Positions 25,779-53,237 of a stretch of 64,000 bases of DNA are shown here, one piece after another. Every line of letters begins with the position of its first letter. The first letter of the stretch is position 1. This DNA comes from a bacterium (GTDB lineage Bacteria > UBA10199 > 2-02-FULL-50-16 > JAJFLM01). Position numbers and translations under genes: made by a program. The stretch lies in NCBI GenBank assembly GCA_965216315.1, contig CBDCFN010000016.1, positions 96,001 to 160,000 of the forward strand, in the 5' to 3' direction. The notes beneath the pieces are model-generated. The model ran no database searches. It was not told the origin of the DNA and was given only the letters and a program-made list of their open reading frames with translations.

Positions 25779-25850
25779 TGGGCGCGACAGGGATTGAACC
25801 TGTGACCCCTGCCGTGTGAAGGCAGTGCTCTCCCACTGAGCTACGCGCCC
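25779..25850 (-). tRNA. tRNA-Val (anticodon CAC), CCA not encoded
   Basis: GGGCGCGTAGCTCAGTGGGAGAGCACTGCCTTCACACGGCAGGGGTCACAGGTTCAATCCCTGTCGCGCCCA forms a cloverleaf. Confidence 0.95.
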
Positions 25851-29052: not shown

Positions 29053-29173
29053 TTCTTATCAAGAGTGGCTGAGGGACTGGCCCGGTGACGCCACAGCAAC
29101 CACCCCATCCGGGGCAGGTGCTAATTCCAGCCCTGTGAGATGCAAAATTCATCTCATGGGGGGCAGATAAGAA
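29053..29173 (+). ncRNA. SAM-I (S-box) riboswitch
   Basis: TTCTTATCAAGAG..GAGGGACTGGCCC..GCAACC..GGTGCTAATTCC..GATAAGAA consensus. Confidence 0.92.
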
Positions 29174-34794: not shown

Positions 34795-36233
34795 ATCCGG
34801 AACCAAATGTCATTATCGATCGGCGACCCCTTTGGATCGTGATGCTCACCCGTGGGTATCGCTATTTGTTGATGGGGGCCCTCGCGATTTTTGCGATCCA
34901 AATGAGTTTATCTGCGCCGCCGGCAGGACTGACCCTCGAAGCGTGGCGCGTCATCATCCTCTTTGTGATGTGCATTGTCCTCTGGATCTTTCAACTAATT
35001 CCCTTGGCGATGACCGGCCTGTTAGCGATTGCCGCACAGCCTTTGATGGGCATTGCGACCTATAAAGAGGCCTATTCGTCCTTCGGTCATCCGACGGTGT
35101 TCTTTCTGTTGGGCGTGTTTATCTTGGCCGGTGCCTTTATGAAGACAGGCCTGTCGACGCGGCTGGCGATTTGGATGCTGCGCGGGGCGGGGCGCAATCC
35201 GCGCCGGATGATCTTACAGATCATGGGGACCTGCACGCTGATGAGTTTTATCATGAGCGAGCATGCGGTCGCGGCGATGATGTTTCCCATTATCCTCGAG
35301 TTTGCCCGGGCGCTCGCCTTCGTGCCTTATGGCGGGAGTTATGGGCGTTTGCTCTTTTTGTCGATGGCCTGGGGCTGTGTCATCGGCGGGATCGGGACGT
35401 TGCTGGGTGGAGGACGGGCCCCGTTGGCGATTGGTTTTCTGGAAGAGTTTACCGGTGACTCGATCGCCTTTTTGGAATGGATGGTCATGATGGTTCCCGT
35501 CGTCGTGATCATGTTTGTCGTTGGCTATGTGATGTTGGTGCGGCTCTTTCCCGTTGATGTCGATACGGTTGAATCGATTGAGGTAGAATTGCAAAAAAAG
35601 AAGGAAGCCCTTGGTCGGATCAAACCCGCGCAACAAATTGTCGCCTTGATTTTTGCGGCGGCGGTATTGGGTTGGATGCTGCTCGGTCACCAAGTGGGCA
35701 TGGCGACGGTTGCGATGTTGGCCGTGATGGGCCTGTTTGTCTTTAATGTCGTGCGCTGGGTGGACCTGGAAGCCTACGTCAATTGGGGGGTGATTCTCCT
35801 GTATGGGGGAGCCATTGGTCTCGGGGCAGCGCTCCACCGCACCGGTGCCGGTGAATGGCTGGTGCAGCAGTATGTCCTGCCGCATGTCGGCAGTCCGTTT
35901 GCCTTGGTCCTGGTCTTTGCGGTGACGGCCGTCTTGATGACGGAGGCGATCAGTAATTCGGCGGTGGTGGCGGTATTGATCCCGATTGCCCTCTCCGTGG
36001 CCGGAAAATACGGCATTGACCCCAAAGGGATGATTTTCCTCATTGCGGGCGGGTCGGGTTTGGCCTATTTGCTCCCGATGTCGACGCCGGCGATTGCGAT
36101 TGCCTATTCCTCGGGATACTACAATTTAAGGGCAATTGCCGTGCCGGCAGTCCTATTGCATATCGTGTCGATCGCCGTTATGTTGCTGGCCGCCTGGCTC
36201 TGGTGGCCCTTGTTTGGGGTCAGGGTATTTTGA
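34791..36233 (+). CDS. SLC13/DASS anion (probably sulfate) transporter
   Basis: Many TM helices; MSEHA, TEAISNSA, PMSTPA motifs. Confidence 0.85.
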   Translation: MNPEPNVIIDRRPLWIVMLTRGYRYLLMGALAIFAIQMSLSAPPAGLTLEAWRVIILFVMCIVLWIFQLIPLAMTGLLAIAAQPLMGIATYKEAYSSFGHPTVFFLLGVFILAGAFMKTGLSTRLAIWMLRGAGRNPRRMILQIMGTCTLMSFIMSEHAVAAMMFPIILEFARALAFVPYGGSYGRLLFLSMAWGCVIGGIGTLLGGGRAPLAIGFLEEFTGDSIAFLEWMVMMVPVVVIMFVVGYVMLVRLFPVDVDTVESIEVELQKKKEALGRIKPAQQIVALIFAAAVLGWMLLGHQVGMATVAMLAVMGLFVFNVVRWVDLEAYVNWGVILLYGGAIGLGAALHRTGAGEWLVQQYVLPHVGSPFALVLVFAVTAVLMTEAISNSAVVAVLIPIALSVAGKYGIDPKGMIFLIAGGSGLAYLLPMSTPAIAIAYSSGYYNLRAIAVPAVLLHIVSIAVMLLAAWLWWPLFGVRVF

Positions 36234-36315
36234 TTCCCTCTCCTTGCGAAGGAGAGGGCTAGGGAGAGGTCTTTAAGTGACCTCCCCTCAATCCCCTCCT
36301 TACTAAGGAGGGGAA
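36234..36315. repeat. Intergenic double-hairpin element (same family as comEC insertions)
   Basis: CCCTCTCCTT..AAGGAGAGGG and CCCCTCCTT..AAGGAGGGG. Confidence 0.75.
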
Positions 36316-36324
36316 GTTGAGGTT

Positions 36325-38845: not shown

Positions 38846-40234
38846 ATGTTTTCCAAAGAGAAGGCGGCAAACTACCTAGGAACGGCCTTAAGCCAGGGAG
38901 GCGATTGGGCGGATGTCTTTGCGGAAGAGACCGTCAAACACCATGGCCTGCTCTCCGATGCCTCGATCAAGACCGTCTCGCAAAACCAGCTTGCGGGTGC
39001 CGGCATTCGCGTCGTCAAAGATCAACAAGAATATTACGCCTACACCAATGATCTCAGTGATGCGGGCATGCTCAAGATTGCCCGTGAAGTTGCGGACTCG
39101 ATTGCGGCGGAAAAGAAAGATGTTAAGATTGCTCTCGAAGCCGAGAGCCATGAACCTCAACACGATCCCCAACATTTTCCCGACAAGGTGACCTGGCATC
39201 AGAAGATTGAGCTGTTGCGCCAGGCCGACGAGATCTGTCGCGCCCAATCCCCGCAAATCGTCCAGGTCAACGTCGACTATGTCGATGAAACCCAGCGCAT
39301 TCTCGTTGCGAATTCGGACGGCTTGTTCAAAGAAGACGCGCGCACGCGCGGACGCTTTGCAGTCACGGCAGTCGCCGGCGAAGGGGACAACAAACAATTC
39401 GGTTACGAGGCGCCCGGGGCGCATAAAGGTTTTGAATTTTTTGAGGCCCTGGACGTCAAGGACATCGCTCAAAAGGCCGCCGAGACGGCATTGAAAATGC
39501 TCAAGGCCGACTATGCGCCCCAAGGGGAGATGACGGTGATTATCGATTCCGGTTTTGGCGGCGTGATCTTTCACGAGGCCTGCGGGCACGCCTTGGAGGC
39601 GTCGGCGGTCGCGCGCAAGGCGACGGTGATGGCTGACAAGTTGGGACAACAAATCGCGGCGCCCTGTGTCTCGGCCGTCGATGACGGGACGCTCATCCAT
39701 GAATGGGGGTCCAGCAATATTGATGACGAGGGCATTGTGACGCGACGCAATCTGTTGATCGAAGACGGGGTGTTGCGGTCTTATCTCGTCGACCGCCTGA
39801 ACGGCGAACGCATCGGGCTCGAGTCGACGGGCAGTTCGCGGCGTCAGTCCTATCGATTTGCACCGACCTCGCGCATGAACAATACCTTTATCCTGCCGGG
39901 CAAGGAGCACTTGGCCGAGATGATTGCGAATACCGAGTATGGTTTGTATGCGAAGAAGATGGGGGGCGGATCCGTCAATCCGGCGACGGGTGAGTTTAAC
40001 TTTGCAGTGCAAGAAGGGTATCTGATTCGCAACGGTAAGTTGGCGGAGCCGGTGCGCGGGGCGGTGTTGATCGGCCGTGGTGAAGAGATCCTGATGAATA
40101 TCGATATGGTCGGGAAAGAAATGAAGATGGCACAGGGCATGTGCGGGGCCGCCTCGGGTTGGGTCCCGGTCAACGTCGGTCAACCTGCCATCCGCGTGCA
40201 GAACCTGCTCGTCGGGGGTCAGTCGAGTGGGTAA
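38846..40234 (+). CDS. tldD: TldD metalloprotease
   Basis: FHEACGHALE, DDEG, RMNNT, CG..GQP. Confidence 0.93.
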   Translation: MFSKEKAANYLGTALSQGGDWADVFAEETVKHHGLLSDASIKTVSQNQLAGAGIRVVKDQQEYYAYTNDLSDAGMLKIAREVADSIAAEKKDVKIALEAESHEPQHDPQHFPDKVTWHQKIELLRQADEICRAQSPQIVQVNVDYVDETQRILVANSDGLFKEDARTRGRFAVTAVAGEGDNKQFGYEAPGAHKGFEFFEALDVKDIAQKAAETALKMLKADYAPQGEMTVIIDSGFGGVIFHEACGHALEASAVARKATVMADKLGQQIAAPCVSAVDDGTLIHEWGSSNIDDEGIVTRRNLLIEDGVLRSYLVDRLNGERIGLESTGSSRRQSYRFAPTSRMNNTFILPGKEHLAEMIANTEYGLYAKKMGGGSVNPATGEFNFAVQEGYLIRNGKLAEPVRGAVLIGRGEEILMNIDMVGKEMKMAQGMCGAASGWVPVNVGQPAIRVQNLLVGGQSSG

Positions 40235-41570
40235 AATCTTAGATCTTTTCGATGCCGCCCTGAGCGAAAAATCCGGACCTGAAATCGAACACATTCTGTT
40301 AGCGGGACATACCAACAGCCAACGCGCGGTGTCCCTCTACGCAGGCAAGATCGATTCGGTCGAGATCGCGGATGAGATCAAGATCGGCGTGTGGCTGCGC
40401 ACCAAGGGCCGCTGGGGGTGTGCGACCTTGGAACAAGTCGAGGCCGAGGCGCTTGATCGCGCGATCCAGCAGGCCGTGCTCGCGGCGGAGTTTAGTGACC
40501 CGGATCCGGATTACAGTCTCGCGCCGCCGGAAGAGGTCGCGACCCATTACGAGCCGGATGCCGCGATTCTTGAATTGGGCATGGGGGATTTCGAGGAGAT
40601 TGCGCACCAGATGGAGCAGCAGGCGCAGGACACCTCGCCCTTGATCAAGAACATTCCGCGTATTGGGTGCGGCTCGTCGAGTCGCTCGCATGTGATTGCC
40701 AATTCCGAAGGGGTGCGCATCATCGAGCGGAACAATTTCTTGAAGGCCGGTCTCTCGGTCATGGCCTGCGGCCCGGACGAGCGCATGGTCAATTGTTATG
40801 AGATCAATTATTTTCCCGACCGTGCCTCGTTTGATCCGCAGGGAACGGTCGCGGAAGTCGCAGAGGAAGCGGTGGCACGCGTGGAACCGCGCGGCGTCAA
40901 GAACGGAACCTGGCCGGTGATCTTCGATGCGCGCACGGCGGCGCAATTGCTGAGTACGTTCTCGAGTTGTTTCAGTGGCGATGCCCTCTATCGCAAGTTG
41001 ACGCGACTTGAAGGCAAGTTGGGGCAACAGATTGCGAGTGAGATGGTGTCCGTTGCCCAAAAGAGTTTGATCGGTTTGGTGCGCCACGCCTATGACGCCG
41101 AGGGAACGCCTTGTCAGGATAAGTATCTTATCCACCAAGGGCGCTTTGAGACCTTCCTTAATAATAGATACACGGCCAAGCGGAATCAGATGGAGTCGAC
41201 GGGTAATGCCGACGGGGCGATCGGTGAGGCGCCGGGTGTCGCACCAACCAACTTCTACTGGGACGCGGACGGCGTACCGGTGACCAATCTCTATGAAGAG
41301 ATGGGGACAGGCATCCTTATTAAGGAGTTACACGGGGCCTCGGCCTCGCCGATTTCCGGGGACTTTTCTTATGGGGGGCTTGGGTATTGGGTCGAGAATG
41401 GGAAGATCGATCATCCTATTGCGGACTTTACCATCGCGGGCAACTTCTTTGACTTGCTCAAGAACATCATCGGGTTAGGGGATGACCTGCGGTTCGTCTC
41501 GCCGCATGCTTCCGGATCCTGTGGGGGGCGCTCCTTGTTCGTTAAGTCCTTGGCGGTTTCGGGGAAATAG
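40227..41570 (+). CDS. pmbA: PmbA/TldE protein
   Basis: DAEG, STGNA, SGDFS, TIAGN; overlaps tldD. Confidence 0.9.
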   Translation: MGKILDLFDAALSEKSGPEIEHILLAGHTNSQRAVSLYAGKIDSVEIADEIKIGVWLRTKGRWGCATLEQVEAEALDRAIQQAVLAAEFSDPDPDYSLAPPEEVATHYEPDAAILELGMGDFEEIAHQMEQQAQDTSPLIKNIPRIGCGSSSRSHVIANSEGVRIIERNNFLKAGLSVMACGPDERMVNCYEINYFPDRASFDPQGTVAEVAEEAVARVEPRGVKNGTWPVIFDARTAAQLLSTFSSCFSGDALYRKLTRLEGKLGQQIASEMVSVAQKSLIGLVRHAYDAEGTPCQDKYLIHQGRFETFLNNRYTAKRNQMESTGNADGAIGEAPGVAPTNFYWDADGVPVTNLYEEMGTGILIKELHGASASPISGDFSYGGLGYWVENGKIDHPIADFTIAGNFFDLLKNIIGLGDDLRFVSPHASGSCGGRSLFVKSLAVSGK

Positions 41571-41572
41571 GC

Positions 41573-41653
41573 GTCTCAAAATGAGACTCTTTTCAATTTA
41601 AACCATTCTATTTATTTGAATTTTAATGACATTTATTTGGCATCCGAATTGCT
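41573..41653 (+). promoter_or_regulatory. Sigma54 promoter with palindromic enhancer site
   Basis: GTCTCAAAATGAGAC at 41573; TTGGCATCCGAATTGCT at 41637. Confidence 0.65.
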
Positions 41654-41667
41654 AGTTATTAGCAATC

Positions 41668-42165
41668 ATGACCAAAAGTCTCACGAATATCGAGCAGTGG
41701 ATTTATGCAATACGAGGTCAGCGTGTCATTCTGGATGAGATATTGGCAGAACTCTACGGCATCGAAACAAAACGACTTAATCAACAAGTTCGGCGCAATA
41801 TAAAGAGATTTCCAGCAGATTTTATGTTTCAGCTAACGTCCAAGGAAAATGACTCTTTAAGGTCACAATTTGCAACCTTAAAGAAAGGTCGAGGAACGCA
41901 CCGTAAATACCTGCCTCTTGCCTTTACAGAACAAGGAATTGCCATGCTCTCCAGTGTGCTCAATACAGACAAAGCGATCCAGGTCAACATCGAGATTATG
42001 CGAGCCTTCGTGCAGATCCGCCGCATGGCCTCCTACCATCATGATCTGGCCGTCCAGATAGGGCGGCTTGAGAAAAAATACGATAGCAAATTTAAGGTCG
42101 TTTTTGAGGCGATTCGCAAATTGATGGAACCGCCACGGAAAAAATCACGGAAGATTGGGTTTTAA
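41668..42165 (+). CDS. ORF6N-domain DNA-binding protein
   Basis: IRGQRVILD..LAELYG..LNQQVRRN..RFPADFMFQL..PLAFTEQGIAMLSSVL; ends KIGF. Confidence 0.92.
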   Translation: MTKSLTNIEQWIYAIRGQRVILDEILAELYGIETKRLNQQVRRNIKRFPADFMFQLTSKENDSLRSQFATLKKGRGTHRKYLPLAFTEQGIAMLSSVLNTDKAIQVNIEIMRAFVQIRRMASYHHDLAVQIGRLEKKYDSKFKVVFEAIRKLMEPPRKKSRKIGF

Positions 42166-42172
42166 AATCCAC

Positions 42173-42295
42173 TTCGACCTGCTCAAGAACATCATCGGCT
42201 TCGGCGACGACCTGCGTTTCGTCTCGCCGAGCGCCTCCGGTTCCTGCGGCGGACGTTCCCTCTACGTCAAGGCGCTGGCGGTGTCGGGAAAGTAG
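42173..42295 (+). repeat. pmbA 3'-end copy 1 (40 codons plus stop)
   Basis: Translates FDLLKNIIGFGDDLRFVSPSASGSCGGRSLYVKALAVSGK*. Confidence 0.92.
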
Positions 42296-42337
42296 GAAAG
42301 GCCCTTTTTCCCTTTATCGTTGCCCATGCCTTTAACC

Positions 42338-42420
42338 GTCCCAAAATGAAACCCTCCTTTGTGTCCTAACCAGCTAAGTCATTGAAATCTAAACAACACG
42401 CTTTTGGCACAGCCCTTGCT
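42338..42420 (+). promoter_or_regulatory. Sigma54 promoter with enhancer-like and IHF-like sites
   Basis: GTCCCAAAATGAAAC 42338; TAAGTCATTGAAAT 42375; TTGGCACAGCCCTTGCT 42404. Confidence 0.65.
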
Positions 42421-42482
42421 TAAATGATGGCAACAGGTGGCACAGGGCCCCTTGCAAATAATATCATAAATGATATCATCAT

Positions 42483-42704
42483 ATGGGAATCAAAGATAAG
42501 CTCAAGGCGGGTAAGCCCTTAACGTTCAGGGAAGCGGAAGTACTTCTTAAGGAGATGGGTTTCACCTTGAGTCACATCAAAGGCAGTCATCATCACTGGG
42601 TGCGGGGACAGGAGATTTTTACTTTGCCACGACACGGCAAGGAATTGAAACGCTGGGTGACTCGTGAACTGAGGAAACGATACGATGCCGAAGAAAAGAC
42701 ATAA
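42483..42704 (+). CDS. hicA: HicA-family toxin
   Basis: LKEMGF..KGSH..LPRH. Confidence 0.85.
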   Translation: MGIKDKLKAGKPLTFREAEVLLKEMGFTLSHIKGSHHHWVRGQEIFTLPRHGKELKRWVTRELRKRYDAEEKT

Positions 42705-43026
42705 CGCGCGCGAATATCCTTTTGTTATTAGCTATGACGCGGCAGACCAGGTCTACATTGCGCGGGCCGTCGATCTCGCGGGCTGTCACTCCGATGGGGC
42801 GACACCGGAGAAGGCCGTCCGACGCATCTATGAAGCGATTGAGGGTTGGCTGGAGACCGCGCGTAAAAAACGCATCCCTATTCCGGCGCCCTCCCGACTC
42901 CAGGCCCAACCCAAGAAGTTCCTCTTGCGTATCGAGCCGCACAACGTCACCAAGCTGGAAACGATGGCGAGTTATAATAAAAAATCCCTGAATAAACTGA
43001 TCAATGAGGCGATTGAGGGGCTTTGA
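42685..43026 (+). CDS. hicB: HicB-family antitoxin with RHH tail
   Basis: DLAGCHSDGATPEKA..AIEGW..IPIP..SLNKLI. Confidence 0.88.
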   Translation: MPKKRHNAREYPFVISYDAADQVYIARAVDLAGCHSDGATPEKAVRRIYEAIEGWLETARKKRIPIPAPSRLQAQPKKFLLRIEPHNVTKLETMASYNKKSLNKLINEAIEGL

Positions 43027-43092
43027 AATGGGGAATAGAAAAGGGCAAAGGTTAATGGGAAACGGTGATCTTGCCCCTTGCCCATTTTTTCA

Positions 43093-43185
43093 GGGGATGA
43101 GTTGAGGTTTGTTTCGCCTTCAGCTTCTGGGCCTTTTGGGGGACGTTCCCTCTACGTCAAGGCGCTGGCGGTTTCGGGGAAATAA
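43093..43185 (+). repeat. pmbA 3'-end copy 2
   Basis: Translates GDELRFVSPSASGPFGGRSLYVKALAVSGK*. Confidence 0.88.
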
Positions 43186-43549
43186 GAGCGGGAAAAGGGG
43201 AAAGGCAAAGGGAAAACGTTGCCCTTTTTCCGTTTACCTTTGCCCCGTTCTCCCCTTGTTTGGGTTACCCCTTCCCCGTACCAAATTGAAATCCTCGAGT
43301 TTCATTATGAGATGATATAGCTTGCTGCTGATGGCTTCGGCATGATCAAGCAATTGAGCATGTAAATCCCTGCACGAGAATCCTGCCAAACAACTAGATC
43401 TTCGAAGCGGCGAATAGATGGCATGCTTGGGTTAAGAGCAAAATTGATGCCAAGTGGGGAAGGGGAGCGGGAAAAGTGAAATGGTCAAAGGGAAACCTTG
43501 TCCATTCATCATTTCCCATTGCCCGTTCTTCCCTTGCCCCGTTTTCCCC

Positions 43550-43742
43550 CTAGGATATTGGGTCGAGAACGGTAAGATCGATCATCCGATCGCTGATTTT
43601 ACCATCGCAGGCAACTTCTTTGACCTGCTCAAAAACATCATTGCCTTCGGCGAGGACCTACGTTTCGTCTCGCCCCATGCCTCCGGTTCCTGCGGGGGGC
43701 GGTCCCTCTACGTCAGGGACTTGGCGGTGTCAGGGGAAATAG
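43550..43742 (+). repeat. pmbA 3'-end copy 3 (~63 codons, +1 base near the stop)
   Basis: LGYWVENGKIDHPIADFTIAGNFFDLLKNIIAFGEDLRFVSPHASGSCGGRSLYVRDLAVSG. Confidence 0.92.
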
Positions 43743-43746
43743 TAGT

Positions 43747-44046
43747 CTAGGTTATGATTGAAATCCCACGGCGCGGAGCAGGTACTAATTTGCATCCGTA
43801 CCCCAAGGCCTTTAGTGCATTGAACAGGACATCATAGGTCAGCTTGGCTGTGCCGATCCCCGATTCTATTTGGGCGACGCGGCTCTGGCTGACATCGAGT
43901 ATTTTGGCGAACTCGACCTGTGTCAGCTTTTTTTTGATGCGTAGCTCACGAATCAGTTCCATCAAATGCTGCTTGGCTCGTACTTCATCAATATCAATGC
44001 CGAGATCGCTTGCTATTTCTTTAGCCGATGTCTTCTTCCAGGGCAT
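43747..44046 (-). CDS. XRE/HTH antitoxin (HigA-like)
   Basis: LRIKKKLTQVEFAKILDVSQSRVAQIESG. Confidence 0.85.
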   Translation of the reverse strand: MPWKKTSAKEIASDLGIDIDEVRAKQHLMELIRELRIKKKLTQVEFAKILDVSQSRVAQIESGIGTAKLTYDVLFNALKALGYGCKLVPAPRRGISIIT

Positions 44047-44047
44047 G

Positions 44048-44380
44048 CTAAACCTCTTTCAATCTTTTTAAGATAACCTTTTTCTCGCGCTCCGGGATCT
44101 TTTGCGTTTTTTTTCGAAAAGCATGGAGCAAGAAGATGGCATCCCGTTTCTTTAAATAATAAATAATCCTCGCGATTCCGGCCCGATCACGGAGCCTTAG
44201 CTCATGCAAACCCCTCTGTATTCCTGGCAAGGGCTTGGAGATGGGTGGCCCCAGCGTTTGTCCCCGCTCCAAGAGAGCGATGGCATCAACGAAATCCTGC
44301 CGCGCTCGAGATTCCAGGTCGGCCACAAATTCTTCGACCGGACTGCGCCCGCTACGGGTTACATAATACTTTATCGGCAT
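44048..44380 (-). CDS. RelE/ParE (HigB/Gp49-like) toxin
   Basis: GRSPVEEF..GLHELR..ARIIY..LLHAFRKKTQKIP. Confidence 0.88.
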   Translation of the reverse strand: MPIKYYVTRSGRSPVEEFVADLESRARQDFVDAIALLERGQTLGPPISKPLPGIQRGLHELRLRDRAGIARIIYYLKKRDAIFLLHAFRKKTQKIPEREKKVILKRLKEV

Positions 44381-44446
44381 CTTCTATTATAAGTTGCTGC
44401 TAATATTAGTCAAGACTAATACTTTTATTCTTGTTGAAAATAGCTA

Positions 44447-44559
44447 AGCAAATACGATGCCAAGGTCGAAAAGAACGTAAGTGGTTGAAATCAGGGGTGT
44501 GAGTACTTATGAATGAGCGTTGCCGAGTCCGAGAATGCGACGACGCCGTCTCATTTTGG
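44447..44559 (-). promoter_or_regulatory. Sigma54 promoter with IHF-like and enhancer-like sites
   Basis: Reverse-strand TTGGCATCGTATTTGCT at 44447-44463; TAAGTGGTTGAAAT 44478; CCAAAATGAGAC (rev) 44548-44559. Confidence 0.6.
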
Positions 44560-44575
44560 CTTCTATCGCTGCGCG

Positions 44576-44643
44576 GGTGAACTGCGCTTCGTCTCACCGA
44601 GTGCTCTCTCTACGTCAAGGCCTTGGCAGTTGCGGGAAAGTAA
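44576..44643 (+). repeat. pmbA 3'-end copy 4 (internal deletion)
   Basis: GELRFVSPSA-[deletion]-LYVKALAVAGK*. Confidence 0.8.
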
Positions 44644-44839
44644 GGACGGTCAACGGCTAAAGGCAAACGTTGTTCCTTGCACACTCGTCTTCTCCTTCCT
44701 TTGATGTCACGAACTGTGATTTCAAAGATTAGTAAGGCACCTCTTGACAATCGGCAAAAATATCGGCAATAATACTATATATTTACGGCCTAATTCCCTT
44801 ATAATATGTTGAAATAATTGATAAATATAGAGATATCAG

Positions 44840-46033
44840 ATGGGCAAAAATATAGGCAAAAGTGAGCCGGTTTCATTGATGGAACCGATGATGCCGGCAG
44901 AGGGGTGCCGGGTGCTCGAGGACTTGGCGGTGGAACTGACGGAGCGGTCCCACCGTTTGGCGGGGCATATTCATCCTGTGGTGCAGCGCTCCGTCGGTGA
45001 CTTGGTGCGTGCAATGAATTGCTATTATAGTAATTTGATTGAAGGGCATGACACGCATCCCCGCGACATTGAGCGCGCTTTGGCGCAGGATTTCTCCACT
45101 CAACCGGAACAACGTGAACTGCAATTAGAGGCCAAGGCTCACATCGAAGTTCAGAAGATGATTGATGAAGCCCCTGCGAACGCACAGCTCATGTCGGTGG
45201 ATTATATTTGTTGGCTGCATCAAGAATTTTGCAGGCGTCTTCCAGAGGAAATGTTGTGGGTGGAAGATCCCGATACCAAAAGAAAGATCAAAGTGGTTCC
45301 TGGTGAGTTGCGGAATGAAACCGTCACAGTCGGCCGACATATTCCGCCGCGCCCCGAGCATCTTGGCAAATTCATGGCCCGATTCGAAGAGGCTTATCAA
45401 CCGGATCGACTCTCTAAGTTGAAGCGGGTCCTCGCTGTGGCGGCCTCTCATCATCGCCTCTTGTGGATTCATCCTTTTTTTGATGGCAACGGACGCGTCA
45501 CGCGGCTGCTTTCTTATACCTATTTGAAATATATCGGACTCAGTAGCGGCCTTTGGTCGGCGTCTCGAGGACTGGCGCGCACGGTTAGTGAATATCGGAC
45601 GCGCCTTGAAGCCGCCGATAGCGCGCGCGCCGGTGATTTAGACGGTAGAGGGAGTCTCTCCTTGCAAGGCCTCGCGGATTTCTGTCGCTACTTTCTAAAG
45701 ACTTGTATCGATCAAGTCGAATACATGGGGGGATTGCTCGATCCTACTGAATTCTTGAGACGGGTACAAATATTCTGTGAAGAAGAGGAACATGCGGGTC
45801 GGCTTCCCAAGCGATCTTTTCAATTGCTCCGTGAAGCTTGGCTGGTGGGCACGTTTGAAAGAGGGCGTGCTCTAGAACTGACAGGTTATGGTCAGCGTCA
45901 GGCACGAACCGTTCTCAACGAATTAGTGAAACAAGGGTTATTGACTTCGGATACGCCGAAAGGACCAGTCCGCTTGAACTTTCCAATCCACGTTGTTGAA
46001 CGTTGGTTTCCTAACCTTTATCCGGTTACCTAA
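44840..46033 (+). CDS. Fic family protein
   Basis: MNCYYSNLIEGHDT and HPFFDGNGRVTR. Confidence 0.92.
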   Translation: MGKNIGKSEPVSLMEPMMPAEGCRVLEDLAVELTERSHRLAGHIHPVVQRSVGDLVRAMNCYYSNLIEGHDTHPRDIERALAQDFSTQPEQRELQLEAKAHIEVQKMIDEAPANAQLMSVDYICWLHQEFCRRLPEEMLWVEDPDTKRKIKVVPGELRNETVTVGRHIPPRPEHLGKFMARFEEAYQPDRLSKLKRVLAVAASHHRLLWIHPFFDGNGRVTRLLSYTYLKYIGLSSGLWSASRGLARTVSEYRTRLEAADSARAGDLDGRGSLSLQGLADFCRYFLKTCIDQVEYMGGLLDPTEFLRRVQIFCEEEEHAGRLPKRSFQLLREAWLVGTFERGRALELTGYGQRQARTVLNELVKQGLLTSDTPKGPVRLNFPIHVVERWFPNLYPVT

Positions 46034-46037
46034 CAGT

Positions 46038-47252
46038 TTAGCGCAGTTTCTTCGGAGTGCTCGGAGAGAATTTAAAAATCCGTTCGGTTGGTGCGGTGTC
46101 GGATTGAGGTATTTCGAGTGGGTCCGGTGTCAGTTGAGAGTTGTCTTTGCTCGCCCGTTCAGCGCGCGCCTTGAGGAAATCTTCAATGCTTCCGCCGGAG
46201 GCAAGGGTCTGGGCCAGCGGCCAATGTTTATCGGCCATAACTTTTCGGCCGGCCGGAATAAATTCGAGGAAGCCCGCGTTGATTTGCATGTCCGGGTTCT
46301 TTTCGGAAGTCCGCGTGCGGACGTAGGAGAGCAAACAGCCGGCCTGAATCGGACCGCCCCGCCGCCTAGCGCCCAGATCGACGTAGCCACATTCAAAATG
46401 ACGGACCCGCGTTCCATTAATGACGTCGAGCGGCACGCTCACGCGCTCGACGCGTTCTTTCAGCTCCGCCCAGGGTAACACTTCCTGCTTGGGGCCGCCC
46501 GTGGCAACTTGGTAGCGCGGCCAGTCGCCTTCGAGTGAAACAAGATTGCCTAAGTTGTCGAACCAGACGCGCACGCGTGAACCGGGCCCCACGACGGGGA
46601 CGCCGTTCACCTTCCGACCGAAGATGGCGATGTTGGCGACGTACACCGGTTCCGGGGTTGCTGCTTCGGGAGTCGTCGCCGGGATGCCGGTTAGTGCTGC
46701 ATTTTGGGGTGGCGCGGGAAAAGCCATGTTTTTGAGAAAGCGCGTGCCGCGAAAGGTCAATTCTTCCTGAGCACCGAGCGGAATGAGATCTTTGAGTTGG
46801 CCAATCACTTGGCGGCCCCGGTTTTCCAATTCCGCATCGCTCATGCGGCCTTTCTCGCGGCCCTTAGCGATGTAGTCGGGATTGTCGAGGTCGCCGCGAA
46901 AGCGGAACTTGCTGCCGTCGGCGAAGAATTCGGCATAGCTGGCGCCGTTTTTATAAAAATCACGGTTGCCTGCAGTTTCGCGTTTGACCGCCACCAGACC
47001 CTTCGCGACGAAGCGCTCGCCAAAACGTCCGTCGAGTTTTTCGATCAATTTTTTGGCTATCGCTTCGCGACCGTCCGCAGGGAGTCGCGTCAGCACCGAG
47101 ACGCTATCGATAGGGAAACCGCTCTGCAAGGCAGTCTCCTGCTGCGCCTGTCGGTACGCGGACGGCCCGGCCCAAACGGTTGAACCGAGTAAGGTGAAAG
47201 CGAGCAGGCTCAAAAATGTCATCTTCATCATGCGTGCCTCAGTCATCATCAA
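46038..47252 (-). CDS. Secreted hypothetical protein, partner of DUF6345 protein
   Basis: Signal peptide from MMKMTFLSLL; FGRKVNGVPV resembles PepSY/YcdB-like repeats. Confidence 0.65.
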   Translation of the reverse strand: MMMTEARMMKMTFLSLLAFTLLGSTVWAGPSAYRQAQQETALQSGFPIDSVSVLTRLPADGREAIAKKLIEKLDGRFGERFVAKGLVAVKRETAGNRDFYKNGASYAEFFADGSKFRFRGDLDNPDYIAKGREKGRMSDAELENRGRQVIGQLKDLIPLGAQEELTFRGTRFLKNMAFPAPPQNAALTGIPATTPEAATPEPVYVANIAIFGRKVNGVPVVGPGSRVRVWFDNLGNLVSLEGDWPRYQVATGGPKQEVLPWAELKERVERVSVPLDVINGTRVRHFECGYVDLGARRRGGPIQAGCLLSYVRTRTSEKNPDMQINAGFLEFIPAGRKVMADKHWPLAQTLASGGSIEDFLKARAERASKDNSQLTPDPLEIPQSDTAPTERIFKFSPSTPKKLR

Positions 47253-48681
47253 TCCAACTCATGCAGAGATACTCGATCGTGTCGTCGCGCACTCGTGCGT
47301 AATTTTTAAAATTCTTCCAGGTCAGGGTGTCTCGACGCAGTCCGCAATTGGTCGCCGCACTGACGTTTGTCGTATATCCGCTGGCCATCACCGCCACCGG
47401 TTGATCGTCCAGGTCCTCGAAAATGCCGTCGTACCAGGCCCACTTGACGCTCTTGCCGTCTTGGAGTCCTTCGGCGTATTCGGTGGCGGCCTCCGGATAG
47501 GGGTAAATAGCGATGTCGTACATCCCCAGGGCCATCATCAGCCCGCCACGAAAGGTATTGATCCAACGCTGATAAGTATACTCATCAATCTGGAGCATGC
47601 TGCAGGCGACGAGGGTCAAAAAGGCGAGCTTCGTGCCCTCATCGCCAAAGCGCCAGCCCTCCCGGTTCGTACAGATGTTGACGTCCTCGTTCCACGCGCT
47701 GAGACAGGCCTCATCTTTATTCACTGCGCCATGGGTCGTGATCATGGCGAGGTCGACGGCATCCAAGCCCCCGTACTGGCACTGGTCACACCAGGAAGAA
47801 AAATATTGTTTAGGATTCTTCAGATTCGTCGAATAGAGTTTAGTGTCGGTATTGTCCAAGACGTTAATGAACTCGCTGACAAAACCATTGGTTTCCCAGA
47901 GCAGCTGTTGCCAGTCGTTCTCAAAGCTTTCCTGGCTGCGGACACCGAAGCACTTGCCGGGACAGGTATAGGCCGGTTCCGGCTCTTCTTGGATATTAAA
48001 GTACCAGATCAAAGGTTGCAGGAGTTGACCGCCGTCGACGGCTTGAGGCCCGTTGTCCATGTGATAGATGGTGACCTTATATTGGACGCCGTCTTTTAAA
48101 GGTTGTTCGGGCGTAAGTACGAGCCCCTTGTAGTAGGACGCAACCTGGACCGGTACGGTTTGGGGCTGCGCCCAGCCGACATAGGGATGGGGTCTCTCCA
48201 GTTTGACGGAGCCGGCGATTGACGCCGGATCGACGTTGCGATCGAAGATGATCAACACGTAGAAAAAGTCATCGAGGGCGACGACGTCATCGGGTCCGGG
48301 CTGGCGGTCCTCGACGTGAAAGGCGATTTGGATCTTGTCGTCCCAACGTTCGGCGGCAATATTGGGTTTCCTGAGATCCGGATGGATGCGTCGCAGCCGG
48401 TCCATTACATCCGTTTGCTTTAATAGGAGCGGCGCGGTGGATGGTCTGGCTTGTTGTTCGGCGCCGCGCGCATTCTCTTGAGATGCCTCTTGTGAAGATT
48501 CCGTTGTGTCTTGCGTGGATAGCGTCCGGTCCGAACCCGTTTCCATTCGATACAGGCCTGTGTCCGCGGCAGCCGCAGGGGGAGCCGAAAGTACGCCCAG
48601 GAGACAGAGCAGCGTCATTAGTATGCGGAGGTCTCCTGTTAGCACCCGGCCGGAGTTTGTTTGGTTTGATTTCGTTTTCAC
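47239..48681 (-). CDS. Secreted Ig-like plus DUF6345 domain protein
   Basis: Signal peptide; LTPEQPL..G.QY.V Ig domain; DAVDLAMITTHG..ACSML..V.WAW. Confidence 0.7.
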   Translation of the reverse strand: MKTKSNQTNSGRVLTGDLRILMTLLCLLGVLSAPPAAAADTGLYRMETGSDRTLSTQDTTESSQEASQENARGAEQQARPSTAPLLLKQTDVMDRLRRIHPDLRKPNIAAERWDDKIQIAFHVEDRQPGPDDVVALDDFFYVLIIFDRNVDPASIAGSVKLERPHPYVGWAQPQTVPVQVASYYKGLVLTPEQPLKDGVQYKVTIYHMDNGPQAVDGGQLLQPLIWYFNIQEEPEPAYTCPGKCFGVRSQESFENDWQQLLWETNGFVSEFINVLDNTDTKLYSTNLKNPKQYFSSWCDQCQYGGLDAVDLAMITTHGAVNKDEACLSAWNEDVNICTNREGWRFGDEGTKLAFLTLVACSMLQIDEYTYQRWINTFRGGLMMALGMYDIAIYPYPEAATEYAEGLQDGKSVKWAWYDGIFEDLDDQPVAVMASGYTTNVSAATNCGLRRDTLTWKNFKNYARVRDDTIEYLCMSWIDDD

Positions 48682-48710
48682 GCGGCTCCTTTGTGTTGGC
48701 CTATAAAATG

Positions 48711-48830
48711 TTGCAAGACATGTGCCAGCTTTCGGGAAGAGTTTGGTAAATAAACGTTTTAAATACAGAGGGTTAGCACGACGGCTCTTTGGAAGGCGTT
48801 ATCAAAATGATAATATTTTCATTTTGATAA
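48711..48830 (-). promoter_or_regulatory. Sigma54 promoter with two enhancer-like palindromes
   Basis: Reverse CTGGCACATGTCTTGCA; TTATCAAAATGATAA 48799 and TTTTCATTTTGATAA 48816. Confidence 0.7.
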
Positions 48831-48962
48831 TGATGACCCATGCACTGAGTGGCGCGCTGGAGCCGGGAGACGAGGACGTACCGTCTTATTCAGTTAAGTC
48901 GAGAAAACGGACACGGGTGACAATTCGACGACGATCATCAATAACCTCTTATCAAGTGGGGG

Positions 48963-49706
48963 TTGAACGTGGATTTCTTCTTTAAATTGTATGGCGATTT
49001 GCCCAAGCAAGGCCCTGGGAGTAAAGAATGTACTTTAAAGGCTCTGCATGCCATACCCGAGCATGAAAACTTTAAACATATCTTAGATGTGGGCTGTGGA
49101 ACTGGAAGACACACAATACTGCTTGCCGAAAATACCTCTGCCAAAATAACCGCGTTAGAATTTTATGATCAACAAATAGCAAGGCTGAGCAAAACTGTGC
49201 AGTTGGCCAATCTTTCTGGGCGTATTGGGATAGTTAAAGGAGATATGGGTGATCTTTCATTTGCCAACGAAAAATATGATCTTATTTGGTCTGAATGTTC
49301 AATCTACAATATTGGGTTCGAAAGGGGACTCAGTCATTGGAAGAATTATCTCAAGGAAAATGGTTATCTGGCTGTGTCTGAAGTCGTTTGGTTGACAGAG
49401 ACTCCATCAAAAGAAGTCAAAGAATGGTGGGATGAGGAATATCCTGACATTCAAACCGTCGATCAGAAAATCGATATAATTAAGCGATGTGGCTATGAGT
49501 TGTTAACTCATTTTGTCGAACCTAAAAATAATTGGTGGGAAGGTTATTACGACCTTTTAGCGAAGCGAATTGCAAAATATGAAGATGTAAAGGTTAACAA
49601 AGCAGAACAGGAAATCATCTCCATGACCAAAATGGAGATAGATATGTTTAAGAAGTATTCCGATCAATATGGCTATGCTTTTTTTGTTATGAGAAAAAAA
49701 GCATAA
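48963..49706 (+). CDS. Class I SAM-dependent methyltransferase (AT-rich)
   Basis: QGPGS, LDVGCGTG, DLIWSE. Confidence 0.88.
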   Translation: MNVDFFFKLYGDLPKQGPGSKECTLKALHAIPEHENFKHILDVGCGTGRHTILLAENTSAKITALEFYDQQIARLSKTVQLANLSGRIGIVKGDMGDLSFANEKYDLIWSECSIYNIGFERGLSHWKNYLKENGYLAVSEVVWLTETPSKEVKEWWDEEYPDIQTVDQKIDIIKRCGYELLTHFVEPKNNWWEGYYDLLAKRIAKYEDVKVNKAEQEIISMTKMEIDMFKKYSDQYGYAFFVMRKKA

Positions 49707-49804
49707 ACACGACTCAATCAGAATGACACGATCTGTAAATAAATTGTAAAACGCACCCGCGTCTTTTTGCATTCGTTTAGTCGACCTTTCGGCTCCTTCA
49801 GCCG

Positions 49805-50521
49805 ATGATGACTCTAATGAAACGAGTCGCTGTCAACGTCGCGTGGTTGGGGATGTGGTTGGGATCCATCGCTATTACCCTCTCCAGTCTGGTCTATTTT
49901 ATCCCCGGCGAACGGGCCGCCTTTATCATCGAGAAACTCCCCTTGGCGGCGGAAGGGTTGTTCGTTTTGGTTTTGCGCCTTCACGTCATCGCTGCGGCCT
50001 TGTGTCTGCCCGGCTGTCTGTTGCTGACCTCAAAGACCGTGCTCCGGCGCTGGCCTGGCCTGCACCGTTGGGGCGGACGCGTGGTCGGCAGCCTGGTGAT
50101 TTTCGTGTTGGTCCCGACGGGGTTTTATCTCGCCTTTTTCGCCCGCGGCGGTTGGGGTGCTACCTTGGGATTCATACTGACGGGCGCGATCGCGCTGGGT
50201 GCGATGCTGCAAGCGATTCGGACCGCGCGCGCGAAGCGTTTCGCGACGCATCGCCGTTACGTCTTCCATGTGCTGGGCCAACTCAGCGTTGCCGTGACGT
50301 CGCGTACGCTGTTGTTTGGACTCGAATCAGCCAATCTCGACCCCGATTTTGCGTACCTGGTCAGCTTGTGGGTTCCGGTGGTCGGTACATTCATTTTAGT
50401 CGAACTGTTGGGCGCGCCCGTCCGGGCTCCATTTATTAACAGGAGGTCTTATGAAAAATTATTTCACCGTAATAATGCTCTTGGCGACGGCGCTGACGCC
50501 GCTCTTAGCGGACGCGGCTGA
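49805..50521 (+). CDS. DUF2306-like membrane protein
   Basis: Several TMs; LHV..LHRWGGR..HRR motif. Confidence 0.7.
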   Translation: MMTLMKRVAVNVAWLGMWLGSIAITLSSLVYFIPGERAAFIIEKLPLAAEGLFVLVLRLHVIAAALCLPGCLLLTSKTVLRRWPGLHRWGGRVVGSLVIFVLVPTGFYLAFFARGGWGATLGFILTGAIALGAMLQAIRTARAKRFATHRRYVFHVLGQLSVAVTSRTLLFGLESANLDPDFAYLVSLWVPVVGTFILVELLGAPVRAPFINRRSYEKLFHRNNALGDGADAALSGRG

Positions 50522-50891
50522 CCGCTTCGAACGTTCCGCCCGCTCGACCCTGCAGGCGGAACTCTTAGCGCCCCTTGAACTCAAGGAGTCCAAGCGCTCG
50601 CGTTTCTCCCGGGCGATGTTGCCGCCCCAGGCGCGGCGCATTCGGATGACAGGCCGGAGGCCCCAGACTGATCGTCAAGGCCGCCGTTTCATTATGTTTG
50701 CCGTCGACGAGAGCCACGCCAAAGACGCGGCCGAAGATCAGTGGTTTAAGAACGCGATTACCGGTTGCGTGTATCCGGTGAGTGGCGAGGTCTTGGTGAA
50801 ACGCGGCGAGGTTTATTATGCCGCTCCGATGATGTGGGGCAAAGCTGTGCCGACCGCGCCGTCGCATGTCTGCCGGCCCGCTTCAATTTGA
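50451..50891 (+). CDS. Secreted hypothetical protein
   Basis: AGGAGG RBS; signal peptide. Confidence 0.6.
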   Translation: MKNYFTVIMLLATALTPLLADAADRFERSARSTLQAELLAPLELKESKRSRFSRAMLPPQARRIRMTGRRPQTDRQGRRFIMFAVDESHAKDAAEDQWFKNAITGCVYPVSGEVLVKRGEVYYAAPMMWGKAVPTAPSHVCRPASI

Positions 50892-51027
50892 TTTCACGTG
50901 CTGTTCCTCCCTTTGTAAAGGGGGAGATCACGATATTCACTCGTTTACTTCAGTGAACAGAAAATAATTTCCCATAACATCTTTCTTCATCGGCGGTCGA
51001 TAAGGGGCCCTGAGAGGAGCGTTTAAT

Positions 51028-51510
51028 ATGACGTCGATGTTTGGAATTTTTTGCTCACCTTTATTAAGTGGGAGCCAACTTCTCGGCTCGCAACGGATGG
51101 CTGAAATTCGTGTTGCAGGAGCAGCAGAAGGCTATCGTGGGCCTAGCCTCGATGATTATGTGCGCATTACGGCGCAGAGTGAGCAGTTCCGAAATATCGG
51201 AAGCAACCTCGGCCTCGTAGGCGATGAACTCGCAGGCTATGTAAAACACCGTGAGTGTAATCTTGCTTGGCGCCAACATCGCGAGGCCCATGGACTTCTC
51301 CACCATGGAATATTCAAAGCCGAGTTTGCGAAATTTGAAGCGCTAACCAAGGTCAAATCACTAGAAAAACTGCGTGCTGAATGGGATTTCGAGCGTCACG
51401 GGCCAGCTTGGCCCTTTGGGGTCACTCGCGGTTATTCATCAGCCCAATCAAACTATATCGGGCAGTTGCTCTATGGAGCTGCCATCATTGCAGTCGACAA
51501 AGGAAAATAA
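51028..51510 (+). CDS. Hypothetical protein
   Basis: GAGGAG RBS; promoter module 50941-51003. Confidence 0.55.
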   Translation: MTSMFGIFCSPLLSGSQLLGSQRMAEIRVAGAAEGYRGPSLDDYVRITAQSEQFRNIGSNLGLVGDELAGYVKHRECNLAWRQHREAHGLLHHGIFKAEFAKFEALTKVKSLEKLRAEWDFERHGPAWPFGVTRGYSSAQSNYIGQLLYGAAIIAVDKGK

Positions 51511-51619
51511 TAACGTCCGTGTCGCGGATGAGGTTTAGGCTGTATACTCGAGGAAACAAATAGAGCTGCTTCATCACGTTTAGGCGCAACATCCACACAA
51601 GAATAGCGAGACATACTGC

Positions 51620-52723
51620 ATGATTATTGCAAGCGGAGTCATTAATTCATCCATGGCCTCCATCTTGGCGAGTAGTGCGTTTGACTCGAACAACCCGATA
51701 CGCAATCGGACCCAATTTGTTTCCGCCACGTCACCGCCTCTCTGGCAAAAGGTGGCGCCGCTATTGATTTCAACGTTAAGCCTGTTTGGTTCCGCTTGTG
51801 ATTGCGGCGACGGTCGCAGTGCTGCGCCAACGGCGGCAATCACTAGCAGTGCGCCGTCGGCGCCGGTTGAACCGACCGATCCGACGCGCCGGCAGAATCT
51901 GGATTTTCAAGGCCAGCCGGGACACGGTAGCATTCAATTCATCCGTGTCATCCATGCGTCGCGCTACTTCAAGGGGAGCATCCGTCAGATACCGAAGCAA
52001 TTTCTTAACAGCACCGGGCGCTATCAATTTAAGGTCCTGGAGGAACTCGCCCAGGCCCGTCCCAAGCATGTTTTTGTCGAAGGTCTTGCGAGTGAGCTCA
52101 ATTCGGTTGAGTTAAGCCATCCGCCGAGTCGCCATCCGTTTCATAAAGCCATTTCGGTTGGCGATATTCTGGCGGCGTTTCCGCAAGGCGTGCCGGCCGA
52201 GCCCAATGATATGCAATTACGCTACTTATTTAAGGCGGGTGCCCCTTTTATTTACGGCGTGTTGTTTAGCGGTGTCACGTTGCACGCAACCATTACGCTG
52301 GAACAAGATGAAGAGATTAGTCGTATGGAAAGGGAGCTGATTCTATCCGTGCCGCCGGAGCGTATCTCAGCAGGCGTCGCCAAGATGATTCAGGAAGGAA
52401 AATTAAAAGTTGGGCCAAACCAGCAAAAGATTCAGATAGACCCCCGTGATTACTTCGATCAAGAACAAAAAAACCGTTATCATTATTTTACCCACACACT
52501 GAGAGATAGTTACGCGGTGCAACACATAGTGGCGTTCTTAAAAAAACATCCCAGTGCCGAGGTTCATCTGGTGTATGGTGCTGCCCATAATTTTTGCGAT
52601 GAATTGGCAACTTCTGAGTTACAAGCGCAACTCACCTCTGTTTGGTGGGCGCAGGCTGATGTCAACATGGACGACGCAACGATGAACGAGACCATCAAAG
52701 CCTGTCCTGTAATCAACCAGTGA
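51620..52723 (+). CDS. Hypothetical protein, possible EreA/ChaN-like fold
   Basis: H..VFVEG..RD..LVYGAAH; promoter motif 51586-51612. Confidence 0.6.
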   Translation: MIIASGVINSSMASILASSAFDSNNPIRNRTQFVSATSPPLWQKVAPLLISTLSLFGSACDCGDGRSAAPTAAITSSAPSAPVEPTDPTRRQNLDFQGQPGHGSIQFIRVIHASRYFKGSIRQIPKQFLNSTGRYQFKVLEELAQARPKHVFVEGLASELNSVELSHPPSRHPFHKAISVGDILAAFPQGVPAEPNDMQLRYLFKAGAPFIYGVLFSGVTLHATITLEQDEEISRMERELILSVPPERISAGVAKMIQEGKLKVGPNQQKIQIDPRDYFDQEQKNRYHYFTHTLRDSYAVQHIVAFLKKHPSAEVHLVYGAAHNFCDELATSELQAQLTSVWWAQADVNMDDATMNETIKACPVINQ

Positions 52724-52740
52724 TCGAACAATCGTTTCCG

Positions 52741-53058
52741 TTACAAAAGCGGAGACAAATTGAAATGCGGCATTATCCACCTCATTACCCCCCACCCGAA
52801 TATAACAGCAGCACAATCTCCCAATGAGTTCTGTAAGGTGTCTGCGCTGGGATGAGGAAAAATGAAGGGCGCGTAGGCCTTCAGCGGATTTTCAATGAGT
52901 TCCCAAGCTACGGCGAGTATGATGACAAGCCAAAATTCAAGACCAAGGTAGCCATAGATCACCCCGATGACGAAGTGCGCCAAAGTAAAACGATCCATGA
53001 ACGGATAGTTGATCTCGCCTTTTTGCGCCCGCCGCAGTTTCGGAAAGAATTTGGTCAT
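52741..53058 (-). CDS. Small membrane protein (DUF2585-like)
   Basis: DRFTLAHFVIG..WELIEN..NSLGD. Confidence 0.65.
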   Translation of the reverse strand: MTKFFPKLRRAQKGEINYPFMDRFTLAHFVIGVIYGYLGLEFWLVIILAVAWELIENPLKAYAPFIFPHPSADTLQNSLGDCAAVIFGWGVMRWIMPHFNLSPLL

Positions 53059-53237
53059 GATGTACCATTAGCCATACCACATGACGCAATGGGCTCTCAA
53101 GTTGTCCTCCCGTAGGCGTATTTAGGATATAAATATTCAGTACAATGTGCTAGTAAAACCACAAGATGGCGATGGGGTTTGCAAAGTAAGCAACATAAAT
53201 ATCACTCATAAATTAACTAAAAAAAAGGAATTCTATT

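Follow-up and report, generated by a model that had tools for sequence, protein, structure and literature searches.

How does a housekeeping gene come to be followed by several displaced copies of its own 3' end, with small unrelated genes between them? In the 64,000-nt stretch of bacterial DNA analysed here (the window), the intact anchor of such an array is pmbA (40227–41570, + strand), of which the last 192 nt make up the copied part; its partner tldD (38846–40234, + strand; Pfam PmbA_TldD domains) lies upstream. Unit 1 (41571–42172, + strand; 42% G+C) consists of a sigma54-type motif at 41638 and an ORF6N gene (41668–42165, + strand) that matches the PADLOC candidate PDC-S05, and is closed by displaced tail 1 (42173–42295, + strand; 123 nt, 41 codons, in frame and with the stop codon present). 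Unit 2 (42296–43092, + strand) has its motif at 42405, followed by hicA (42483–42704, + strand) and hicB (42685–43026, + strand), and ends at the mosaic tail 2 (43093–43185, + strand; 93 nt, 31 codons). Beyond unit 3 (43186–43549, − strand) and tail 3 (43550–43742, + strand; 193 nt, 64 codons) comes the inverted unit 4 (43743–44575, − strand), with an HTH_3 gene (43747–44046, − strand), a RelE/Gp49-like gene (44048–44380, − strand) and a motif at 44462, then tail 4 (44576–44643, + strand; 68 nt, originally ~30 codons). Each cargo unit thus carries one sigma54-type motif.

This order of genes and copies and their coordinates, given in the initial annotation, hold on re-analysis, as does the absence of an integrase, there being no recombinase among the domain matches of the array; no Rfam match was found in it either. 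What had been called a non-coding spacer between copies 2 and 3 is probably a decayed four-helix-bundle gene: a six-frame search matches the profile weakly at either end (E 0.003 and 0.12), which points to an internally deleted 23S_rRNA_IVP-like gene running from ~43424 on the − strand, with a motif at 43452 and purine/pyrimidine short-repeat hairpins on its flanks. The SoFic-like fic gene (44840–46033, + strand) has homologues with 69–79% identity in other families of the phylum. It does not form a bounded cassette, since a profile of the five tails (pmbA and its four copies) finds no tail 3' of it.

Across the window and the genome, the same profile recognizes these five places only (next best match, E 0.046). 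Copies 1, 2 and 3 are 79%, 75% and 83% identical to pmbA at the nucleotide level (E 1.5e-23, 1.6e-10 and 3.8e-50). As first described, the copies stop at the pmbA stop codon, have variable 5' ends and differ mainly at silent positions, the dS/dN values against pmbA being 1.45/0.071 for copy 1 (Fisher p 3e-10; dN/dS 0.05), 1.18/0.139 for copy 2 (p 1e-5) and 0.92/0.058 for copy 3 (p 9e-12). For copy 4, the excess of silent changes is not significant against pmbA (0.53/0.178, p 0.09) but is so against copies 1–3. The displaced copies also differ silently among themselves. Ratios of 0.05–0.12 for copies 1–3, far below 1, argue against simple duplication followed by decay, and each displaced tail is likely to have once ended a working pmbA allele, as had been proposed. 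The tails resemble pmbA at 80–89% of amino acids, whereas orthologues from other genera do so at 67–71%, which suggests that the donors were closer kin. Decay increases downstream, tails 3 and 4 being broken (a 1-nt insertion near the end of copy 3, an internal deletion of ~22 nt in copy 4). The 5' ends of the four copies map to pmbA positions 41379, ~41447, 41477 and 41481; that two of them fall within 4 nt of each other is plausible by chance. The 5' part of tail 2 is strongly diverged from tail 1 (19 mismatches in 39 nt) and is followed by 32 identical nucleotides, an arrangement reproduced in 0 of 20000 codon permutations; judged from sequence, this identical block beside diverged DNA is a recombination footprint.

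We therefore favour, with a probability of roughly 0.6, growth of the array by repeated homology-anchored insertion, via RecA, of a pmbA end plus cargo from sister species. Incoming DNA from a sister species would bring both a pmbA 3' end and a small gene unit and would recombine with the end of the resident pmbA; the host RecA machinery would do the joining, so that pmbA is restored and the old end is shifted downstream. Such DNA may enter by natural transformation, and the joint may form by one crossover with a circular molecule or by a one-sided homology-facilitated illegitimate join, between which the data do not separate. The newest unit would then adjoin pmbA, the first landing of a unit would be non-homologous, beside a stop codon and with a short duplication, and toxin-antitoxin units may be kept because their recombinational loss between tails would be costly. 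The idea of the initial annotation that units accreted with no integrase in the array is supported, and homology-facilitated uptake, suggested from comEC (confirmed at 21922–24312 in the window), is possible in a genome that has comEC, dprA and recA, although these genes are so common in bacteria that they are weak evidence for it. Against insertion from sister species, recombination across 17–25% divergence should be rare, with mutS present in the genome, and the identical blocks could also stem from gene conversion that took place later between adjacent copies.

The same scar is found at other genes. A scan for further 3'-end duplicates, recommended earlier, gave a non-genic tail match downstream of 20 of the 2535 genes in the genome, of which 16, pmbA included, were judged real; the control yielded four upstream matches, all artefacts, and none on the opposite strand. 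At genes other than pmbA the displaced tail is present in a single copy. Codon changes pooled over 15 sites comprise 112 silent and 32 replacement ones; codon usage, tried at these 15 sites as a marker of donor versus resident tail, had no consistent sign. Four displaced gene heads were also found. In the displaced argG tail (421 nt), 80 consecutive identical nucleotides lie between diverged flanks (p 0.0002, last 177 nt), and this mosaic, like that of tails 1 and 2, is compatible with a circular intermediate; at 12 other sites the identical-block test gave p < 0.05 in only two.

Some of these sites bear on a fairly unlikely alternative: the non-homologous joint would be the work of a trans-acting nicking or strand-transfer enzyme (a REP-associated Y1 transposase, for example), with homology serving only to resolve the other end. 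At small hairpin repeats elsewhere, the displaced piece starts no more than a few bases from one and the same end of the repeat in 5 of 10 cases for family A, 10 of 36 for family B and 7 of 26 for family C (0 of 28 for family D), and the genome encodes one Y1 transposase, which is RAYT-like but scores 55.6 bits against a family cut-off of 80. However, repeats A, B and C have no copy in the window, and the four pmbA junctions share no common motif and show no significant hairpin (z 0.85 to −1.7).

Alternatively, insertion of each unit could have occurred in place and produced a long target duplication, the copies being identical at first and diverging later by allele replacement and gene conversion. 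The tails are direct repeats of variable length (68–193 nt, all >30 bp) with no mobility gene, as in such duplications, and some repeats are indeed near-identical (41 of 42 nt at suf, 46 of 47 nt at gcvP), as they are in published cases (PMC2853133). Displaced copies differ less in their 5' half (57/495 versus 111/504), but this bias is partly built in by the definition of the copy start. A dead copy should collect replacement changes, whereas dN is only 0.06–0.14 at a dS of ~1 and silent differences also separate the four copies from one another; we regard this explanation as unlikely. The restriction-modification genes described by Furuta et al. (2010, PMC2853133) are comparable in being selfish genes of the addiction type that lie between long direct repeats of variable length, with no mobility gene, mostly in competent species and with some repeats overlapping gene ends. 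The repeats in those accounts are near-identical and single and the cargo is a DNA-cutting system; here, allelic tails of 75–83% identity are stacked four deep and the cargo is ORF6N, HicAB and RelE-HTH, with no DNA nuclease recognised.

Like an integron, the array is a stack of small units with toxin-antitoxin cargo, the newest presumably first, and its units have gene-restoring ends. The initial annotation spoke of an integron-like array, for which a site-specific recombinase encoded elsewhere would use the pmbA end as its attachment site, and there are five tyrosine and two serine recombinase matches elsewhere in the genome, two of which look, by their size, like XerC/D. Site-specific systems cross over at a fixed point, whereas the 5' ends here are spread over 100 nt, and many unrelated genes, as well as gene heads, show the scar too. 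The best match to IntI (TIGR02249) scores 88 bits, where the cut-off is 265, in a genome that is 98% complete, and a simple pattern search of 41301–46100 found no attC-like core/inverse-core pair 40–150 nt apart on either strand. No recombinase gene lies in or beside the array, all matches being far off or on other contigs, with two at tRNAs >800 kb away; no reverse transcriptase was found. The array is thus not an integron, and an integron-like array served by a site-specific recombinase from elsewhere is very unlikely, this reading being already largely refuted.

Simple tandem duplication with decay, or mis-assembly, is hardly credible even though no single record spans the array, given dN/dS far below 1, copies only 75–83% alike and hence too different to act as assembly repeats, junctions inside contigs of even depth and an exactly matching contig from a second study. 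Three contigs of run X1, possibly the source sample, tile 41364–46285 (depth 3.67, 3.8 and 3.76). Their only breaks fall in the 32 nt that copies 1 and 2 share, which leaves every cargo-tail junction within a contig, while the placement of the hicAB unit is not fixed by one record. The contig from the second study (151 nt, depth 2) corresponds to 43073–43223. In run X2, 66% of which was read and which has other holes too, a contig ends inside tail 3 with 21 unplaced letters and unit 4 is uncovered. The contigs of four runs contained no circle joint or empty site, but contigs drop rare forms.

Scans of metagenome and genome collections turned up no close relative whose pmbA locus carries another set of cassettes; only 2 of 160 collection loci had an orthologue of >45% identity, and the best protein relative is 67% identical. 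Complete pmbA orthologues in six other genomes (of 92) are distant, with tails of 63–73% amino acid identity, and have no extra pmbA tail, each giving one match. In a genome of the same family (G001), the locus is split at contig ends.

Insertion anchored in a gene end, the likely origin of the array, follows a known principle, although its location here, at a housekeeping gene, is unusual. At rhs and mafB loci, an intact gene is followed by a string of variable 3' fragments with genes between them and no integrase, and a circle with a single crossover has been proposed to shunt the old end (Jackson et al., 2009, PMC2935791). Variable-length 3' fragments with intervening genes likewise follow the intact gene here. 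In that account, however, the payload is the new tip itself, whose sequence differs while the cores are near-identical, and the host is a polymorphic toxin with non-homologous tips; here, the host is PmbA, the homologous tails are a conserved housekeeping end with silent divergence and the payload is unrelated cargo. Sequential displacement of Vibrio T6SS effector-immunity genes by homology-facilitated illegitimate recombination (Kirchberger et al., 2017, PMC5361080) shares upstream anchor homology, a downstream non-homologous join and stacking, likened to integrons, with no integrase; the cases described there are limited to toxin-delivery loci and keep immunity genes rather than silent tail copies. 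In fungal mitochondria, atp6 and cob are followed by mobile homing-endonuclease genes and a C-terminal duplicate (PMC6279837), but the present array contains no gene recognised as a homing endonuclease. Finally, many gene-acquisition hotspots described by Oliveira et al. (2017, PMC5635113) have no integrase; they gather accessory genes, without mobile-element genes, beside recombining core genes and are more frequent in transformable bacteria, yet the double-crossover model of that paper leaves no displaced gene end. For the filling of such integrase-free hotspots, the tails offer a readable record of events, giving arrival order, donor divergence (dS ~1, well beyond one species) and crossover tracts.

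Among homologues of the cargo elsewhere in the phylum, RelE-HTH pairs are bracketed by repeats holding the neighbour's stop codon at 6/27 and 1/17 usable loci (7/44), against 0/702 and 0/272 (0/974) in a shuffled-pair control, although one of the seven (L359) proves to be a repeat of a gene head and three measure only 18–22 nt; the host genes include rtcB, apaG and purH. The same test found no displaced-end bracket around ORF6N (0/25), HicB (0/19), four-helix-bundle (0/28) or Fic (0/7) genes, 0/79 overall, and a wider scan found one among 21 HicB loci, so that most cargo arrives otherwise or loses the scar, and these families are mostly not dedicated tail cassettes. No convincing tail was seen in 200 kb each of G075 and G035; the scar is thus not dense everywhere. 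An ORF-only tail scan of the collection loci without gene calling (33/160) was noisy and was set aside. Tentatively, and with odds clearly against it, RelE/Gp49-HTH and similar addiction modules might circulate between species without a recombinase, using the end of an essential gene as a landing pad, occasionally switching host gene and stacking in arrays, which would amount to a general cassette system based on housekeeping ends and RecA instead of integrase and attC. If toxin-antitoxin units do use gene ends in this way, this would explain their lone spread in chromosomes, provide a simple mark by which new defence genes can be found and imply that species exchange the ends of their housekeeping genes. 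The sigma54-type motif was rejected as an attachment site, since it tracks the orientation of the cargo and since, among the 17 usable ORF6N loci elsewhere (of 29), 8 also have it upstream of the gene.

Analysis of the 2.96 Mb genome that holds the window (98% complete) showed that the pmbA 3' end recurs four times downstream of tldD and pmbA, each copy ending at the stop codon: tail 1 (42173–42295), tail 2 (43093–43185), tail 3 (43550–43742, with a 1-nt insertion) and tail 4 (44576–44643, with a deletion of about 22 nt). The coordinates in the initial annotation hold, and a profile built from all five tails detected no sixth copy. Its claim that the copies differ mostly at synonymous positions proved correct for tails 1–3, whose dN and dS relative to pmbA (0.071 and 1.45, 0.139 and 1.18, and 0.058 and 0.92, respectively) give ratios far below 1; for tail 4 (20 codons) the silent excess relative to pmbA was not significant. 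Silent differences also separate the displaced tails from each other. The protein likeness of tails 1–3 to PmbA is 80–89%, as against 67–71% for the orthologues at five loci of other genera, and their donors were therefore probably closer kin than the other genera sampled, themselves unsampled.

Pfam matches confirmed ORF6N, HicA, HicB, HTH_3, Gp49 (RelE-like) and Fic in the array; the ORF6N protein matched the defence candidate PDC-S05 and the Fic protein matched SoFic. The third unit, initially described as a non-coding spacer, carries on its minus strand both ends of what is probably a four-helix-bundle gene (E = 0.003 and 0.12 with a profile made from 19 homologues of the class). This remnant is rated only as probable because the genome holds no intact copy. 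Short-repeat hairpins lie on both sides of the remnant, and most of the 19 homologues are likewise bordered by short repeats. Within the class, 62 of 93 genomes carry PF05635 four-helix-bundle genes, a single genome having as many as 39 matches, and most of these genes have runs of repeats of about 7 nt, in inverted orientation, on their flanks (L264–L293); a literature search found no paper on such repeat-flanked genes.

Two units are oriented forward and two backward, and all four contain a sigma54-type −24/−12 motif, oriented as the cargo. There are six such sites in the window, four of them in array units, and 94 in the genome (81 of 2535 genes). The motif was rejected as part of the landing site, since it also lies upstream of 8 of 17 ORF6N homologues elsewhere and therefore belongs to the cargo. 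A 20-nt stretch at 44750–44769, 70 nt upstream of the fic start, nearly repeats the opening codons of that gene. The variable region extends beyond the array, with more accessory-looking genes of uneven G+C content (42–59%) at 46038–53100, including DUF6345 and a methyltransferase.

We consider it reasonably probable (roughly 0.6) that the array was built by repeated insertion of units from relatives, anchored on the gene end. A unit would first have been placed beside a stop codon with a short duplication and would thereafter have moved together with the gene end. On uptake by a relative, the incoming end would pair with its resident counterpart. Either a circle would then recombine by one crossover or a one-sided join would form at the anchor, which would install the donor end and its cargo and shunt the old end downstream. 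The stack would grow by repetition, newest unit first, while tails decay and non-addictive cargo is deleted. The presence of comEC, noted initially, was verified, together with dprA, recA and mutS. Between tails 1 and 2, a run of 32 identical nt begins immediately after a 39-nt stretch with 19 mismatches (none of 20000 permutations was as extreme; p from 0.02 to 0.86 for the remaining nine tail pairs). Inside the displaced tail of argG (421 nt, 87%), 80 consecutive nt are identical and the sequence on either side has diverged (p = 0.0002); at L337 (G000:C16:1204631–1207085), a single gene of 216 aa, encoded on the opposite strand, separates argG from this tail. Among 12 sites, p was below 0.05 only for argG and the fliP-like site. 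Blocks of this kind would be expected if insertion involved a single crossover or gap repair, but they are also compatible with later conversion.

The initial annotation had proposed a genome scan for further 3'-end duplicates, and these do exist. Within 8 kb downstream, 20 of 2535 called genes had a non-genic tail match; four were dropped as artefacts (an obg-like gene repeat, tail 1 itself, a gene matching both ways and a far weak match), leaving 16 genes, pmbA included, with gene names assigned from sequence. Controls gave four upstream matches, all artefacts, and no reversed ones. The scan missed argG because its displaced copy is an ORF. Only pmbA among the genes scanned has more than one tail. 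Codon changes pooled over 15 sites comprised 112 silent and 32 replacement changes, and four of seven matches to displaced gene heads were real. At L334 (G000:C15:440854–442726), a nadC-like gene is followed by an HTH and nucleotidyltransferase (DUF2204) pair and a displaced tail.

Cutting by a nicking enzyme acting in trans is a rather unlikely alternative, and target duplication followed by later exchange appears slightly less probable still. Many short displaced-end sites enclose 70–90-nt hairpin repeats that match no Rfam family. About 72 full copies of three GC hairpin repeat families adjoin start codons or tRNA ends genome-wide, and at 22 of the 72, from all three families, a displaced gene tail, gene head or tRNA half begins at one fixed repeat end (examples outside the window are C16:459537–459629, C16:1841548–1841627 and C15:220499–220584). 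Of 93 genomes of the class, 41 have the core of one family; the pmbA array and the window hold no copies of the three families. The sole Y1 (RAYT-like) transposase of the genome (L338, G000:C16:1212844–1213947), with a sigma54-type motif and its own end region duplicated (358 nt), is a candidate mover of these repeats.

In relatives, direct repeats containing a neighbour's stop codon flank unit 4 homologues at 6 of the 27 loci that could be used out of 29 and, in a second set, at 1 of 17 out of 20, versus 0/702 and 0/272 mismatched-pair controls; the genomes behind these counts are kin, not independent, and of the seven flanked loci one, L359, has a repeated gene head instead, and at three the repeats measure only 18–22 nt. 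The hosts include rtcB, apaG and purH, whose repeats differ mostly silently (silent/replacement 6/2, 3/1 and 3/2); at rtcB and apaG the unit is inverted, stop-to-stop, like unit 4 at pmbA. A wider scan added gcvP ends around a HicB-like gene and ends of a ChsH2-type OB-fold gene on either side of a nucleotidyltransferase-HEPN pair. With rtcB, apaG and purH, this makes five further genomes of the class in which displaced tails surround units of toxin-antitoxin type (L391, L392, L393, L394 and L395). The narrow repeat-flank test was negative for ORF6N (0/25), HicB (0/19), four-helix-bundle (0/28) and Fic (0/7) homologues and for housekeeping controls (0/26). Complete orthologous pmbA genes, found in 6 of 92 other genomes, all have no extra tail.

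A site-specific recombinase is an improbable agent. Outside the array, searches of the genome gave matches to five tyrosine and two serine recombinases, one Y1 transposase and no reverse transcriptase; the domain search revealed no recombinase gene within the array, in agreement with the original description of an array with no integrase. The suggested likeness to an integron was not supported: the genome has no IntI match over the cut-off, the array has no attC-like pair, and no motif or hairpin is common to the tail junctions. The array is not an integron. In its mode of action it is like C-terminal displacement at rhs/mafB genes (PMC2935791) and like the T6SS arrays of Vibrio (PMC5361080), and there is also a resemblance to insertion with long target duplication (PMC2853133). 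The array belongs to none of these classes, because its host is a housekeeping gene, its tails are allelic and its cargo is unrelated. A narrow full-text literature search found no published case combining these features. The pmbA array is genuine and documents, to an unusual depth, how genes were captured without an integrase at the end of a housekeeping gene.

Mere duplication or an artefact is very improbable. Contigs of run X1, perhaps the source sample, cover 41364–42280, 42253–43170 and 43143–46285 at even depth, with breaks confined to the 32 nt common to tails 1 and 2. An exactly matching 151-nt contig that spans tail 2 comes from another study. No circle or empty site was seen among the assembled contigs of the runs compared, and there is a hint that the array may differ in run X2.

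Elsewhere in the window, the family D repeat, a palindrome with three hairpins, occurs at 23292–23377 and 36232–36317, one of these copies being inside the comEC reading frame; none of the 28 full copies in the genome is linked to displaced ends. The window also contains a SAM riboswitch (29053–29173) and a tRNA-Val gene (25779–25850).
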